A stretch of 64,000 bases of DNA from the NCBI GenBank assembly GCA_032250835.1, contig JAVVEA010000012.1:1-64000 (forward strand), in the 5' to 3' direction. Under the pieces are notes generated by a model that saw nothing but the letters and a program-made list of their open reading frames with translations, was not told the DNA's origin and did not search any database. Position numbers and translations under genes: made by a program. Shown in pieces: positions 1 through 17,389 of this stretch (position 1 is the stretch's first letter; each line of letters begins with the position of its first letter). This DNA is from a bacterium (GTDB lineage: Bacteria > SAR324 > XYD2-FULL-50-16).

Positions 1-954
1 CACCTCCTGCTGATCCTTCGGCTCAGCTGGCCTATATTCCAGCCACCAACGGGGGGAACGACCCCTTTGGTTTGAGCAAAAAAACGGGGCCTAAGCCCAC
101 AGAAGGGAGATGAACTGGTCGCAGAGTTCACCTCGGTAGGGCGGGCACAGAAGCCACTGGCCAGGGAAAACCGGTGGCTCTGCGCCCGGTCGCCTTGGTT
201 CCAAGCGCTGCCTTGCGGTATCTCCAAGGCAACGCCTGAAAGGGTGGCATCCTGGGGGGAGTGGACGCCACCGTTAAGCACCTTCTGCTGATCCTTCGGC
301 TCAGCTGGCCTATATTCCAGCCACCAACGGGGGGAACGACCCCTTTGGTTTGAGCAAAAAAACGGGGCCTAAGCCCACAGAAGGGAGATGAACTGGTCGC
401 AGAGTTCACCTCGGTAGGGCGGGCACAGAAGCCACTGGCCAGGGAAAACCGGTGGCTCTGCGCCCGGTCGCCTTGGTTCCAAGCGCTGCCTTGCGGTATC
501 TCCAAGGCAACGCCTGAAAGGGTGGCATCCTGGGGGGAGTGGACGCCACCGTTAAGCACCTCCTGCTGATCCTTCGGCTCAGCTGGCCTATATTCCAGCC
601 ACCAACGGGGGGAACGACCCCTTTGGTTTGAGCCAAAAATAACAGGGCCTAAGCCCACAGAAGGGAGGTGAACTGGTCGCAGAGTTCACCTCGGTAGAGT
701 GGGCGCAGAAGCCACTGGCTCAGGGAAAAACCAGCTTTCTGCGCCCTGTCGCTTGAAAAGGGGTCCAAGCGCTGCCTTGCGGTCTCCCAACAAAGCAACG
801 CCCGGAACGGTGGCATCCTGGGGGGAGTGGACGCCACCACTAGGAACCTTCTGCTGGCGGTTCGGCTCAGCTGGCCTATATTCCAGCAGCCATCGGGGGG
901 AACGACCCCTTTGGCTTGAGCCCAACCAGACCGGGGCCTAAGCCCACAGAAGGG
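1..954 (-). repeat. Tandem array of ~278-289 bp hairpin-rich non-coding units (3 full + 1 partial, truncated by window start)
   Basis: The anchor cctaagcccacagaaggg ends at 107, 385, 665 and 954 (periods 278, 280, 289). Units 1-278 and 279-556 are near-identical and the rightmost copy is diverged. None of the periods is a multiple of 3. Most stem mismatches are A-C on + (G-U on -), which points to the minus strand. Confidence 0.95.
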
Positions 955-1360
955 GGAAAGTGTTCGGGGGCCCCCGAGACCCAGCCAAAGGGGCCGGAGC
1001 AGACGAGCGCTTGAGCTGCACCGGGGGAAGGTGCGCCCAGGCAGAAGCCCGGTAGAGCTTGAAATTCAAGTCTGCCGTGACCGTTCCCCAACCATGACTC
1101 AAGGTGCAATAGGTGCAGCTTTTTAGGTCAGGAGAAACGTCGGCTTTAGGTTGGTTTCCCGGACGCTCCGGCGCGGGCTGCTCGCCGCAAAGTGCGGACC
1201 ACTGCGCCAGCATCGAAGGGGGGACTTCGAAGCGACGGCAATGCACCGAGAGGCCATAAGCCTCCGCAGCAATCAGCACAGAAAGGAGCAGCCCGAGAAC
1301 GGGCCGAATTGTCCAAGAAACCAAAGGTAACTTCCAGTCTAGGATCTTCCGAGGGACCAA
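938..1360 (-). CDS. DUF2946/CutF/CruR-like small protein with CxxC and C-terminal RGPP arrest-type motif
   Basis: N-terminal hydrophobic segment, CTYC, Pro-rich tail ending SRGPP. The start codon (TTG) is uncertain. Confidence 0.65.
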   Translation of the reverse strand: MVPRKILDWKLPLVSWTIRPVLGLLLSVLIAAEAYGLSVHCRRFEVPPSMLAQWSALCGEQPAPERPGNQPKADVSPDLKSCTYCTLSHGWGTVTADLNFKLYRASAWAHLPPVQLKRSSAPAPLAGSRGPPNTFPLLWA

Positions 1361-1439
1361 AACCGCCTATATTTCAGTTCTGGGTCTCAAGAAGATCGAA
1401 TTTATCCGATCGGGATGGGTCGATACAGACGAAGCTAGA

Positions 1440-1796
1440 CTAGACGGGAGGGGCTCTCGGAGGCAGTTGCTGGCGAGGAGCTGGAGTGCCGGTAAGCTCT
1501 ACCGCAGAACTCTGGGCCAAAACCGCCAAGAAGGCGGGGCTGACCAGTGGAGCGTTGGAGCCAAAGGCAAGGTGGGTATTGGTCAGACTAAAGCAATGTT
1601 CGCAGCCTTCTTGAGGGTCCCGGTCGCTGCTCGTCTGGCCCTCATCGCCCAGGTGGGCACCGCAGATCATCTGCAATGCCGCCAAGCCGTCGGATTCGAC
1701 GAGCAACTCGCTAGATAAAGTACAACCGTAGACCGAAAGGCCCAGGTTGACCATCAAGGCGGTCAGCGCAAAAAGGGAGGCAACATACTTAAACAT
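1440..1796 (-). CDS. DUF2946/CutF/CruR-like small protein with CxxC and C-terminal RAPP motif
   Basis: Signal-like N-terminus, ICG, CEHC, ends PPRAPPV-stop. Confidence 0.8.
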   Translation of the reverse strand: MFKYVASLFALTALMVNLGLSVYGCTLSSELLVESDGLAALQMICGAHLGDEGQTSSDRDPQEGCEHCFSLTNTHLAFGSNAPLVSPAFLAVLAQSSAVELTGTPAPRQQLPPRAPPV

Positions 1797-1903
1797 CTAA
1801 TCCAATCATTGAGGAAAAATCCTGTTCCTACCTAGCAAAGGCTTAAAAGGCTGGCAACCCACAATATTCACCCGAGGCCTCTCAGCCCTTTGTTAATAAG
1901 CCT

Positions 1904-2137
1904 TTATGGCCACTTCTGTCCGTGGCAGCTATAACAACTGGGCGCTTCGCCTCCGCCGCGCAAATCCGAGCCATGGCAAGAGACGCAGTAGGTTCGGGGC
2001 TCATTCAGATTGGGTGCGTGATAAGAGCCGTTTTTGTTGACTGTATGATCCGCCGGGCGCTCGTCGTCATCTTCCTTACAGCCCATCAAAGCCGCTGCCA
2101 GCAACAGGATCAAAATGACTTTAACCAACTTCATCAC
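1904..2137 (-). CDS. Small dihaem c-type cytochrome lipoprotein
   Basis: Lipobox LMGC, two CxxCH motifs (CVSCH, CYSCH), and a Shine-Dalgarno (SD) aaggggg upstream. Confidence 0.85.
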   Translation of the reverse strand: MMKLVKVILILLLAAALMGCKEDDDERPADHTVNKNGSYHAPNLNEPRTYCVSCHGSDLRGGGEAPSCYSCHGQKWP

Positions 2138-2229
2138 TCCCCCTTGAGTCTAACGAGTGTCAAAATGCTAAAAAATTGAGTCCTTGATAACCCAATGTCC
2201 TCTGACTTGGAAAGAGGCGCAGCCCCAAA

Positions 2230-2269
2230 TTCACGGAAAGTTCATGGTTGCTTCATGGTCCGTTCATGT
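2230..2269. promoter_or_regulatory. Four direct repeats TTCAYG at exact 11-bp spacing (OmpR/PhoB-type operator)
   Basis: ttcacgg 2230, ttcatgg 2241, ttcatgg 2252, ttcatgt 2263, in the divergent intergenic region. Confidence 0.7.
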
Positions 2270-2448
2270 ATGCAGGCCCTTTGACCTGGGGCAATGGATC
2301 AAATAGGCTTGTTTTCAAAGAAAATTCTGGGGTTTCGACAAAGCGAAAAAAAGAAGATTTTGGCCGCCTTAAAGCTTGCACTCGGCTATTGGGGGCTGTT
2401 AATCTAGCCACAACAAAATATCTCTTCCCCTCTCTGCTTGCAAACCAA

Positions 2449-4440
2449 ATGGGCGCTTTGAAGTCTGCAGCAATCTTTTTGTGGGCGCTGATCCTGTTTT
2501 GCCAAGCCCCGCTTACCGGGTTCGGTGCCCCAGAGATTCTACGTCTCCAGGCCGAAAGCGAGCGCGTGCCGATCGGCTTACAGACCCTATATCTGCGCGA
2601 CGATGCCGGGGCCATGCGGATTGAGGAGATGCTCAACCCGTTGGTGCGGGAACGATTCAAACCGCTAGGTTCCAATCACGTCAACTTCGGCCAGGAACAC
2701 CGCCCCCATTGGTTTTGGTCTCGAATCCAAAACTACTCAGACCAACCTCGGGAGTTGGTGCTGCAAATCTACGGCGTACAACCCACTGCCGGGGCTTTTT
2801 TACTGCCCATCGATGCCACCGAGGTTTCCCAAATCCGACGCATTGCCCAAGACAGCAAACCCCACCGGTTTATGCTGCTGCATTTTACCCTCAAGCCCTT
2901 TGAAACCAGGGACTTGGTGTTATTTAAACAATCACCCAACAACCTAAGTTTCAACGCGACCCTTTGGAACAACGAATCCTTTTTTAGTTGGGACGCCAAC
3001 GACCGCAGCCTCCATTTTTTATATTACGGCGCGGCTTTGGTGATGTTGATTTATAACCTCTTTTTATTCCTCTCGCTGCGCGACGCCGCCTATTTCTATT
3101 ATGTCTGCGTGATTGCGGCAGTTATCCTTTTCCTCTTAGGCATGGACGGGATCGGCCGCGCGCTGGTCTGGCCTCAGTTTGCCGAATACAACCATTGGAT
3201 TGCTGGGTTTATGGCTGGCTGCGTGCCCTTCTCCTTGACGCCCTTTACTATCCGCCTGCTCGATACCAAGCGTCTCTTGCCGGGGTTCCACAAAGTCCTG
3301 CTGGTTTATTACGGATACACCATCTTGGTCTTGGCCAGCGCCTTGGTGTTGCCCTTCGCGGTCTTTAGCGCTTTAATCGGGAGCCTCGGGGCCTTGTTCT
3401 TGTTTATCTACCCTCCGGCGGGTTTGATGGCCCTGATCAAAGGGAACTTGTCGGCGCGCTATTTTGTGGCCGGGTGGGTGATCTACGAAATCGGCGTCTT
3501 TTTGATCACCACCGCCCACTTTGGCTGGGGTAACTACTACGAAGCGCTGGCCTACTTTAAAATCGGTTCTTTCTTCGAGATCAGCCTATTCAGCCTAGCT
3601 TTGGCGGACCGGATCAACCTTTTGCAGTCCGAAAAACAAACCGCCCAGGCAAAGCAACTGCAACAGGAACGCAACTTCCGGCAGTTGCTGCAAAAAGAGG
3701 TGGATAGTCAGACCGCCGAGCTGAAGCAAAAAAACCAAGCGCTAGAGCACATGAACCTAGAAAAAAGTGAATTTTTGGGCATTGCGGCGCATGACCTTAA
3801 ATCACCCTTAGGTGGGATTCTCGGGTTTACTCAGCTAATCGAGATGGAGACGGCGACCCAAAATATGGAGGAAATCCTCATCTACAACCGCATGATCTCC
3901 AGCGGAGCGCGGCATATGTTGGAATTGGTGAGCAACTTTTTAGACGTCAGCGCCATCGAGTCCGCCACCTTACCTCAGTTAGAAGAGGTGGATTTGCGCC
4001 AAGTGGTGCAAGATACCTTGGAATACTTCAAGCCCCTGGCGGCGGCAAAACAAATCCGGTTAACGGTGCGCCTAGACGGAGAAATCCCCAAAGTTAAGGC
4101 CCACCCCAAATGGGCCGCCGAAGTGGCCGGTAATTTAATCTCCAACGCCGTCAAATATAGCCCCCAACAAAGAGAAGTGACCCTGCAATTGGACTTTGAG
4201 TCCCCCTGGGTCCGCTTGGTGGTGATCGATCAGGGGCCGGGCCTTTCTTTAGAAGATAAAAATAAGCTATTCCAGAAGTTTACCCGCCTTTCGGCCAAGC
4301 CAACGGGCGGAGAGTCCTCGACGGGCTTGGGTCTTTATATTGTCAAGCGCATGACCGAACAGATGGGCGGTCAGGTTTGGTGCGAAAGCACCATGGGCAA
4401 GGGGGCTACCTTCGTCATCCAACTGCCCTCAGCCAGTTAA
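2449..4440 (+). CDS. 7TMR-DISM sensor histidine kinase
   Basis: Signal peptide from ATG 2449, DISMED2-like periplasmic domain, 7TM block (YYGAALVMLIYNLFLF), H-box AAHDLKSP, HATPase N/G boxes. Confidence 0.9.
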   Translation: MGALKSAAIFLWALILFCQAPLTGFGAPEILRLQAESERVPIGLQTLYLRDDAGAMRIEEMLNPLVRERFKPLGSNHVNFGQEHRPHWFWSRIQNYSDQPRELVLQIYGVQPTAGAFLLPIDATEVSQIRRIAQDSKPHRFMLLHFTLKPFETRDLVLFKQSPNNLSFNATLWNNESFFSWDANDRSLHFLYYGAALVMLIYNLFLFLSLRDAAYFYYVCVIAAVILFLLGMDGIGRALVWPQFAEYNHWIAGFMAGCVPFSLTPFTIRLLDTKRLLPGFHKVLLVYYGYTILVLASALVLPFAVFSALIGSLGALFLFIYPPAGLMALIKGNLSARYFVAGWVIYEIGVFLITTAHFGWGNYYEALAYFKIGSFFEISLFSLALADRINLLQSEKQTAQAKQLQQERNFRQLLQKEVDSQTAELKQKNQALEHMNLEKSEFLGIAAHDLKSPLGGILGFTQLIEMETATQNMEEILIYNRMISSGARHMLELVSNFLDVSAIESATLPQLEEVDLRQVVQDTLEYFKPLAAAKQIRLTVRLDGEIPKVKAHPKWAAEVAGNLISNAVKYSPQQREVTLQLDFESPWVRLVVIDQGPGLSLEDKNKLFQKFTRLSAKPTGGESSTGLGLYIVKRMTEQMGGQVWCESTMGKGATFVIQLPSAS

Positions 4441-16140: not shown

Positions 16141-17389
16141 ATGAATCAAACTGTAAGGCCTGCGGGCTACCGGGGCACTAAGCTTTGGCTATTGTCCCTG
16201 CTTTTTTGGGGCCTCTTGACCGCCCCGACGGCCCAGGCCGCAGACATCCTGATTTATTCATCGAGCCACAAAAACCAAGGCACGACCCAGGTAAAACAGC
16301 CCAGCGGGACCTTGGTCTTGCAAGTCAGCAGTTTTTCTAAAATCTTGCAGGTCACCCTAAACGGGCAACCGGTACCCTTCAAAGGCACCGATGTGGCCGA
16401 GGTGAAAGCCCCCTACCAACTAGAAAAAGGGATCAACCGGTTAGAAATCGAGGTGAGCACCGAAGAGGGAAGCTTAGATAAAACCTTCATTCTCGCCTAC
16501 GGAGAAGCCCCCCAACGCCAAGCCAGCCCCCCAACGCCAAGCCAGCCCCCTACGCCTCAACCTAATGGGCGGTTTAAACTACAGCGACAACGTGGCGCTG
16601 GTCCCAAGTGACCAAAAAGAAAGTGGTACTTGGTTTGATCTGGTCTTTTTGCCGGGCTACCGGTTTGATCTGGGTTCCTCACAGTTGGACCTATCGGGAA
16701 TTTTTCTTTGGGAAAAATACACGAAGAAAGACCAAGCTCCCGAAGAAATCCAGCTGAATCAAGTCACCTTGGGCTACTTGAACCCAGGCATGTTGGGTAA
16801 ATGGAAGCTTGAAGGCGGCTACCGAACCTTTGGTACCGAAAACGATGGCTTAGTGGCCAAAAGCCAAGAGGGCAACGAGCTTTTCTTTGGCGGCAACGGC
16901 CCCTTGGACCTAGGGGTGCCTTTGATCGTTACGGCCAAGTTCACTCAGCGGGTTTTAACCAACGGCGGCACCGAAGGCTACGACCCCGACGGGAACCTCT
17001 ACCAAGTTTCGGCCCGTTGGACCCTCAAAGGCAACGGCCTGAGCCAAAACGTCTCGGGCGGGTTCGACCTGATGGACGCCAAAGGCCAATATAAGGACAA
17101 CCAAGCCCTACGCTTAGGTTATGGATTGGACCTACCCTTGAGCCAGACGATGGGCCTTAAAACGGCCTATGACCTAAAAAAGACGGACTACTCCAAAGCT
17201 GACCCGGCCTATGGCGTTGCCGAATCAGACCTACGCCACCGGGTTTCGGCCGAGGGGACCTACCGGTTCGGGGGTATTGAGGGATTAGCGGCTCTGGGCG
17301 AGGTCGCCTACGAGACCCGCAGTTCGAACCTGGACGCCCGAACGTATACAGCCAGTTTGTTTAAGATTTCCGCATTATACAGCTTTTAG
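16141..17389 (+). pseudogene. Exported protein (Ig-like N-domain + outer-membrane beta-barrel) split by a 19-bp duplication
   Basis: ORFs 16141-16611 and 16565-17389 join in frame (409 aa) if one 19-bp unit is removed. Only the first has a signal peptide and only the second ends in YSF. Confidence 0.8.
16506..16550 (+). repeat. 19-bp perfect tandem repeat (2.4 copies)
   Basis: agccccccaacgccaagcc at 16506 and 16525, followed by agccccc. Confidence 0.95.

Follow-up and report, generated by a model that had tools for sequence, protein, structure and literature searches.

A tandem array of folded ~280-nt units beside a DUF2946 gene cluster in a SAR324 bacterium is a candidate minus-strand structured RNA

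In enterobacteria, REP elements are ~35-40 nt long and are scattered at hundreds of sites; ToxI-type repeats measure a few tens of nucleotides, and 6C is a single small actinobacterial RNA. As set out in the portions of the literature available to us, REP/BIME sequences are extragenic hairpin repeats that lie just after genes, sometimes in tandem, and they have been proposed to act in mRNA decay and termination (10.64898/2026.03.23.713779, PMC3479197). The same kind of partial source describes nsiR1 of heterocystous cyanobacteria as an array of 12 copies in tandem, every one of them driven by a promoter of its own (PMC4030482), and ToxI as tandem structured RNA repeats that are located upstream of a same-strand protein gene and processed into units (PMC3401426, PMC8860590). 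In the portions of the SAR324 literature that we could consult, no RNA of the kind reported here was found described.

Here we analyse a locus at the start of a 64,000-nt stretch of DNA from a SAR324 bacterium. This stretch, referred to as the window, comprises the first 64 kb of contig C3 in a genome (G000) of 3.66 Mb and 43 contigs. The locus is a tandem structured non-coding repeat without a sequence family. By analogy, it would work most like the hairpin repeats of the REP/BIME type in 3′ UTRs or like NsiR1 arrays, and it is ToxI-like in layout. The defining features of these systems that we tested are lacking, namely dispersal (REP/BIME), a ToxN-type neighbour (ToxI) and unit size, and no per-unit promoter of the NsiR1 kind was detected.

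Like REP/BIME sequences, the array is extragenic, hairpin-forming, tandem and placed after a gene, but its unit spans 278 nt with seven hairpins and is found at one locus. With NsiR1 it shares non-coding copies arranged head-to-tail at a single locus, whereas NsiR1 is 60 nt long, has a promoter for each copy and is conserved across a clade; the array has no detected per-unit minus-strand promoter, and no relative has it. As in ToxI, a structured tandem repeat lies upstream of a same-strand gene. The neighbour of ToxI, however, is an endoribonuclease toxin, while that of the array is a lipoprotein-like MBL-fold hydrolase ~230 nt away, whose orthologues in two relatives stand without an array. 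Hairpins with six-C loops recall 6C RNA, which is not a repeat unit and whose model gives the array a score of 21 bits, where gathering requires 47. The regular periodicity and the 28-nt hairpin element (H4) at each junction are reminiscent of CRISPR, but here the stretches between H4 elements are copies of one sequence, and there are n-1 hairpins for n cores.

Tandem Repeats Finder placed the array at window positions 1-954 (period 278, 3.4 copies, 92% matches, 2% indels, score 1527). Used as a query, one unit matched five places in its own genome, four on C3 and one at the end of contig C18 (Table 1). A first-pass annotation of the window, made from the sequence without database searches, had reported periods of 278, 280 and 289 nt and a continuation past the window edge. 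The periods correspond to units of 289, 280 and 278 nt plus a 106-nt edge piece, and the continuation was located as a diverged partial unit (89% identity, same orientation) that makes up the final 95-100 bases of C18. Because unit matches lie at both contig ends, the array bridges C18 and C3, and the assembly break falls inside it. Followed leftward, the array enters C18, where the next gene is that of the MBL-fold hydrolase, ~230 nt off. At least five copies are mutually distinguishable, namely uA, uB, uC, uD and the C18 copy.

Beyond the array and its C18 continuation, blastn of the genome at word size 7 returned just chance matches of 17-31 nt. As genome matches are confined to these two places, a dispersed repeat of the REP/BIME or MITE type was rejected. 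A 17-nt stretch shared by H4 and C22:257229-257245 falls within a gene read as ribosomal protein L10 and was assigned to chance. The genome contains 27 other repeats with a period of at least 60, one of which is a CRISPR array on C4 and many of which have periods that are multiples of three; genome-wide, no second long-period repeat of the array's kind was found. The flanks hold no further degenerate units, with local alignment scores of 21 and 19 against shuffle means of 20.8 and 18.4. Elsewhere in the window, a perfect 19-nt tandem repeat of 2.4 copies occupies positions 16506-16550.

We cut the units in minus-strand phase, with the array starting at ~957 on the minus strand and ending in C18 after H3. 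When units follow one another, the closing helix has two options: its 3′ half may pair with a 5′ half from the same unit or with that from the next. This pairing is ambiguous, so that the phase is set by the array ends and not by folding alone. Every unit consists of a branched M domain, hairpins H1-H3 and the 28-nt linker hairpin H4, giving seven hairpins in total. All six stems named at first pass were found in every full unit, and the three loops called invariant there are unchanged in the copies containing them.

H4 occurs solely between units and is missing both before uA and after the C18 copy; being confined to junctions, it makes the array one of n cores and n-1 linkers. By eye, it has two 11-bp arms that match at 10/11 positions around a 6-bp centre. 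In uA and the C18 copy, upper H3 pairs in a different register. Relative to uC, uA carries 40 substitutions and 13 indel columns.

Several short motifs recur within the units. At the junctions between M domain and H1 (window 1-10, 279-288 and 557-566, plus strand), the minus strand carries a strong Shine-Dalgarno-like word with a GTG 9 nt later, and the ORF that would open at this GTG is conserved between copies for just ~14 codons. At 2/4 unit junctions (window 1-7 and 557-563, plus strand) there is a seven-base match to what we take to be the anti-Shine-Dalgarno end of 16S rRNA. A GTTRRRY-like heptamer, presumably of the integron attC/Xer-type consensus and identified by eye, is present in uB and uC and is not kept in uA.

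Table 1. Coordinates of the array, its units and elements, its genome matches and the adjacent ORFs. Positions are those of the window unless a contig is named; MFE is in kcal/mol; divergence is that of uA against uC.
Feature	Coordinates	Strand	Remarks
Whole array in window	1..957	-	runs off the contig start, resuming at G000:C18:23290-23389
Unit uA	665..953	-	289 nt; first on minus strand, most diverged; MFE -154.7 (minus), -130.3 (plus)
Unit uB	385..664	-	280 nt; 3 substitutions and 2 indel columns versus uC; MFE -144.1 (minus), -126.3 (plus)
Unit uC	107..384	-	278 nt; reference unit; MFE -140.6 (minus), -124.5 (plus)
Unit uD	1..106	-	truncated at contig end; 1 substitution versus uC
M domain of uC	281..384	-	branched; 7-8 bp closing helix around three hairpins
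M domain, other copies	847-953, 559-664, 3-106	-
Hairpin Ma of uC	376-365	-	divergence 0 in 12
Hairpin Mb of uC	349-323	-
Hairpin Mc of uC	321-304	-
Closing helix			divergence 0 in 16
M core			divergence 4 in 57
H1	243..272; also 521-550, 809-838	-	10-bp hairpin, C-rich 10-nt loop; divergence 0 substitutions in 30 nt
H2	204..236; also 482-514, 768-802, C18 copy	-	12-17 bp hairpin
H2 loop			divergence 3 in 9 and 2 indel columns
H3	143..187; also 421-465, 701-746	-	long hairpin, lower stem kept
Upper H3			divergence 8 in 26 and 3 indel columns
H4	107..134; also 385-412, 665-692	-	28-nt linker hairpin, 10 bp, 8-nt loop; divergence 1 in 28
Linkers			divergence 11 in 32 aligned positions and 5 indel columns
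Unit match	C3:1-278		100% identity
Unit match	C3:279-556		100% identity
Unit match	C3:557-838		88% identity
Unit match	C3:846-957		85% identity
Unit match	C18:23295-23389		89% identity; contig's last 95 bases, same orientation
Lipoprotein-like ORF	1904..2137	-	77 aa, two CXXCH motifs; heads the minus-strand cluster
DUF2946 gene	1440..1796	-	118 aa; Pfam E 1.2e-5, above cut-off
DUF2946-like ORF	938..1360	-	140 aa; Pfam E 0.0099, below cut-off

The array is non-coding, as indicated by unit lengths not divisible by 3, by indels between copies (1, 2, 2, 3 and 5 nt), and by ORFs that shift frame from copy to copy. A protein search with its longest ORF, a read-through frame of 176 aa, produced 86 candidates, none of them a relative at E up to 0.001. 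The units also lack a conserved small ORF per repeat, such as the long direct repeats of type I toxin-antitoxin systems (Ldr, Ibs) need.

The initial impression that the unit belongs to no recognisable family was upheld by Rfam and ARAGORN. Rfam 15 gave 0 matches at the gathering score over the whole window, and ARAGORN reported 0 tRNA or tmRNA genes in window 1-3000. With the Rfam search relaxed to E up to 10, window 1-1400 produced 8 matches, all far below gathering, with none to self-cleaving ribozymes or group II intron domains. The sole recurring weak match was 6C RNA (RF01066), which lay over H1 in three places on the minus strand; at 21.1-21.3 bits (gathering score 47, E 4.6-4.8), it was rejected.

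Other classes were tried and discarded. The absence of unique spacers noted at first pass was confirmed, as the 250-nt stretches between H4 copies are 88-100% identical, and CRISPR was excluded. A true CRISPR array is present at G000:C4:15100-16150, with a 32-nt repeat unrelated to the array and spacers of ~35 nt. A type III toxin-antitoxin system such as ToxIN, CptIN or TenpIN was rejected on a downstream gene of the Lactamase_B_2 family (E 4.6e-43), not ToxN-type, and on a unit of 278-289 nt. An anti-Shine-Dalgarno role for the C-rich H1 loop gained no support, the complementary heptamer occurring pre-start in 48/369 cases (13%) against 9-12% in controls, and a CsrA-type sponge was likewise set aside, with ~5 GGA per unit (hand count), as composition predicts.

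Searches for homologues covered relatives, mobile elements and metagenomes. With one unit as query, blastn against 40 relatives returned no homologue; with two units against 88 genomes of the phylum, it found the array in G000 alone. A 28-nt blastn match in G013 (E 0.0056) has no repeat around it and was taken as chance. A covariance model of the M domain (R1) gave 4 matches across the 88 phylum genomes, all of them in G000. Blank results were obtained with blastn against phages and plasmids, with two gapped patterns against genome contigs and metagenome contigs, and with four patterns against viral contigs, the pattern scans being ones that demand exact matches, may omit near-identical records and can detect close relatives only. 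Within the collections and sensitivities searched, the array appears to be an orphan of one genome. The idea of an amplified non-autonomous element, put forward in the first-pass annotation, is unsupported, with no dispersed copy, no nearby mobile-element gene and nothing in phages, plasmids or viral contigs.

The fold of the unit prefers the minus strand. For a single unit, the folding energy on the minus strand was -141.8 kcal/mol, with a z-score of -7.00; the plus strand gave -125.5 kcal/mol (z -3.16), and 0/200 shuffles folded as well as the real unit on either strand. In all three full units, the minus strand holds an advantage of 16-24 kcal/mol. Minimum free energy structures contain 11-14 G-U pairs on the minus strand versus 5-8 on the plus strand (14 versus 6 in uC). 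Counted by hand, the named hairpins of uC have 8-10 G-U pairs versus 1 A-C pair on the minus strand, which matches the earlier remark that imperfect pairs are mostly A-C on the plus strand and G-U on the minus strand, with one exception.

The multi-hairpin fold is retained through 12% divergence, and better on the minus strand. Despite its edits, uA keeps the architecture of uC and folds more stably. In a mutation test, the edits that separate uA from uC were placed at random positions in uC and the products refolded: the 500 mutants averaged -118.5 +/- 6.2 kcal/mol, with 0/500 reaching uA on the minus strand and 7/500 on the plus strand. The reverse test, in which uA was edited towards uC, yielded 0/300 mutants that reached uC on either strand. 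The C18 copy, which is shorter, keeps the fold weakly (mutants as good in 24/500 cases on the minus strand and 66/500 on the plus strand). The plus strand keeps structure too (7/500; 0/300), which is to be expected of any palindrome-rich DNA.

Base pairing was counted in a five-row alignment of related (paralogous) copies from one genome, covering 88 pairs in 9 helices. Standard pairs account for 98.2% of 328 pair cells; sliding the partners by 1-3 columns lowers this share to 36-51%. Double compensation is seen at three pairs (U-G to G-C twice, A-U to G-C once), and nine vary one-sidedly, each of them switching from Watson-Crick to G-U or back on the minus strand. Five of the six unpaired cells lie in upper H3, where uA forms an alternative 8-bp helix. 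The exchange of A45-T71 for G889-C915, singled out at first pass as compensatory, is real (alignment pair 39:65, AU in 3 rows and GC in 1), and the adjacent pair A49-T67 is broken in the copy with G889-C915.

The broader claim of RNA-like covariation rests on the three doubly changed pairs, and the signal is weaker than claimed: 32/500 column shuffles reach the doubly-changed count and 14/500 reach the covariation score, which is borderline. Such borderline controls are expected with five related rows, so that the mutation test, and not classical covariation, carries the argument. As far as one genome can provide it, support for the fold is strong. Divergence between uA and uC is distributed unevenly over the elements (Table 1). 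This patchiness fits constraint on particular hairpins, and patchy gene conversion could yield the same pattern.

On the minus strand, the gene order is a CXXCH lipoprotein-like ORF, a DUF2946 gene, a DUF2946-like ORF, the array, a ~230-nt spacer, the MBL-fold gene and the TetR gene. The DUF2946-like ORF has a CxxC motif in common with the neighbouring DUF2946 gene. No relative of it was found in the 18 other genomes of the family, nor in a large protein collection besides itself. The stop codon of this ORF sits within the first hairpin loop of the array, with the array start within ~20 nt, and the ORF's Pfam match extends up to residue 132 of 140, which places the start of the array where the gene ends.

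The MBL-fold hydrolase, downstream in the minus-strand sense, belongs to Lactamase_B_2, and by eye its N-terminus looks lipoprotein-like; the gene for a TetR-family regulator comes after it. The spacer contains a 23-bp palindrome (L005 1272-1294, G000:C18) ~15-37 nt upstream of the MBL-fold start, with 10+10-bp arms, one mismatch and a 3-bp centre. From its sequence, it looks like a putative operator of the nearby TetR-family regulator. By eye, the palindrome stands just after a possible promoter (hexamers matching at 5/6 and 4/6 positions, 17-nt spacer). A stacked regulatory leader, another of the options raised at first pass, is unlikely, with the array located at the upstream stop codon and the next gene ~230 nt off and preceded by its own palindrome-bearing region. 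No transposase, integrase, reverse transcriptase or recombinase was found among the neighbours scanned.

Orthologues of the MBL gene product, 58-59% identical, are encoded in G006 and G013 among other neighbours and with no repeat. In G006, the closest relative, the MBL gene is preceded, in the upstream region L030 2500-5700 (G006:C5), by ORFs that by eye are lysozyme-, LexA/S24-type repressor- and thermonuclease-like, and the region beside the MBL gene varies between genera. Adjacent pairs of DUF2946-like ORFs also occur elsewhere, at L039 136-979 (G000:C12) and L038 1435-2339 (G003:C5), with no array. By eye, the long ORF directly behind the C12 pair is that of a TonB-dependent receptor, and the 221-aa ORF directly behind the G003 pair is copper-chaperone-like. 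The pair on the array side is preceded by the two-CXXCH lipoprotein and is without a TonB- or chaperone-like partner gene.

A strict sigma-70-like scan of window 1-2300 identified no promoter on either strand. A looser scan revealed no minus-strand promoter-like site in the units or just upstream, in a lineage whose promoter types may differ. On the plus strand, it identified CTGATC-17-TATATT (8/12 consensus positions) at 10, 288 and 566; the site at 854 differs in its -35. This is the only promoter-like site on either strand, and its -10 element is the invariant loop hexamer TATATT. A sigma-54 promoter upstream of the array was rejected, as the one score-8 hit, at 1201, is no more than chance would supply (across the genome, such hits occur 0.55 times per kb of strand).

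Terminator-like sites numbered 6, versus 3.4 +/- 1.9 in shuffles. They include, on the minus strand of uC and uD, a short hairpin with seven U after it; uB has an interrupted run and uA none. Folding predicts that the seven-U run pairs inside the M domain.

Judged from sequence, the chances are about even that the locus is a lineage-specific array of minus-strand structured RNA forming the 3′ extension of an operon. Among the options raised at first pass, minus-strand structured ncRNA is the one favoured by the strand asymmetry, the excess of G-U pairs and the fold kept through 12% divergence. Under this reading, a ~278-nt non-coding unit would have been amplified in tandem at a single locus and would act as minus-strand RNA. 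Since the array lies at the stop codon of the last same-strand gene, we infer that it extends the operon at its 3′ end; transcription would then proceed by read-through from the DUF2946 cluster.

As a chain of very stable modules, such an extension may block 3′ exonucleases, and the array may also insulate the operon from the downstream MBL-fold and TetR genes. Cutting at the H4 linkers could release stable RNAs of ~280 nt, whose unchanged C-rich loops might bind protein or G-rich RNA. We rank 3′ protection and insulation as the likeliest roles and regard release of ~280-nt modules at H4 as possible. One stable hairpin suffices against exonucleases, so a stabiliser role leaves the 278-nt unit unexplained. 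If the hairpin with seven U terminates transcription, the distal units would not be read.

The foremost competing explanation, which we consider unlikely, is that an intergenic segment rich in palindromes was duplicated in tandem and has no function, its hairpins and apparent compensations being products of template switching inside quasi-palindromes during replication and of patchy gene conversion between copies, with no selection at the RNA level. Template switching creates and maintains hairpins with apparent compensatory changes, according to the portion of the source available to us (PMC8794818). This explanation accommodates an array present in one genome (G000) among 88 of the phylum, interior copies that are near-identical beside diverged edge copies, as unequal crossing-over predicts, divergence that is patchy like conversion tracts, and a plus strand that keeps structure too. 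DNA-level processes, however, predict equal G-T and A-C, against the 8-10 G-U and 1 A-C seen (few events). In addition, 9/9 one-sided stem changes still pair on the minus strand, and the compensated helix of uA is not a perfect reverse complement, unlike the outcome of a single templated event. We see somewhat less promise in a long precursor cut at constant H4 linkers into many identical, stable ~250-nt modules, a CRISPR-like layout with constant cargo; through their C-rich loops, the modules would titrate a protein or G-rich RNA sites as a bulk decoy or sponge, with copy number tunable. Less likely again are small-RNA genes independent of one another, as in NsiR1, with a separate promoter and terminator for every unit and higher dosage as the benefit of the array. 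The hairpin with seven U in uC and uD on the minus strand would suit them, as would a head-to-tail layout beside unrelated genes, which the accessible part of the nsiR1 report also describes (PMC4030482). Against them stand the lack of a minus-strand promoter-like site in any unit, a U run that is missing in uA, interrupted in uB and predicted to be paired in the M domain, and units of 278 nt, not ~60 nt.

Very unlikely, in our assessment, is a DNA-level element whose palindromes are protein-binding or recombination sites, for example with H4 as an 11-6-11 Xer/dif-like site between integrated small elements. H4 lies solely between cores and its two 11-bp arms (10/11 matching, 6-bp centre) presumably resemble the dif layout, a TetR-family regulator is encoded nearby, and the palindrome upstream of the MBL gene has a 5-base half-site in common with H4; but the spacing of the half-sites differs (3 versus 10 bases), the array flanks are without the half-site, no recombinase or mobile-element gene is nearby, and the G-U asymmetry is left unexplained. 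We give even less credence to a functional plus strand, on which a weak promoter per unit (-10 TATATT) would drive short RNAs or, from the last unit, antisense transcription into the DUF2946 operon. Recurrence of CTGATC-17-TATATT in each unit, as the sole promoter-like site on either strand, is what recommends it, yet the site falls under the strict-scan threshold, the plus strand folds worse, and a terminator-like hairpin lies ~10 nt past the predicted start. An assembly artefact, in which a graph cycle was traversed repeatedly, would explain why the array sits at a contig end and why two copies are 100% identical; five mutually distinguishable copies and the entry of a second contig (C18) into the array in the same orientation make it barely credible.

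The preferred reading, a minus-strand RNA array extending the DUF2946 operon, carries a weight limited by an array known from one genome and by covariation among paralogous copies within that genome. If instead the modules act as a sponge, the locus would represent a new kind of bacterial RNA locus. If transcribed, the array would constitute an unusually large and ornate bacterial ncRNA repeat unit, in which 278 nt form seven hairpins at about -140 kcal/mol, and it would offer a clean case for the origin and upkeep of tandem amplified folded RNA modules.
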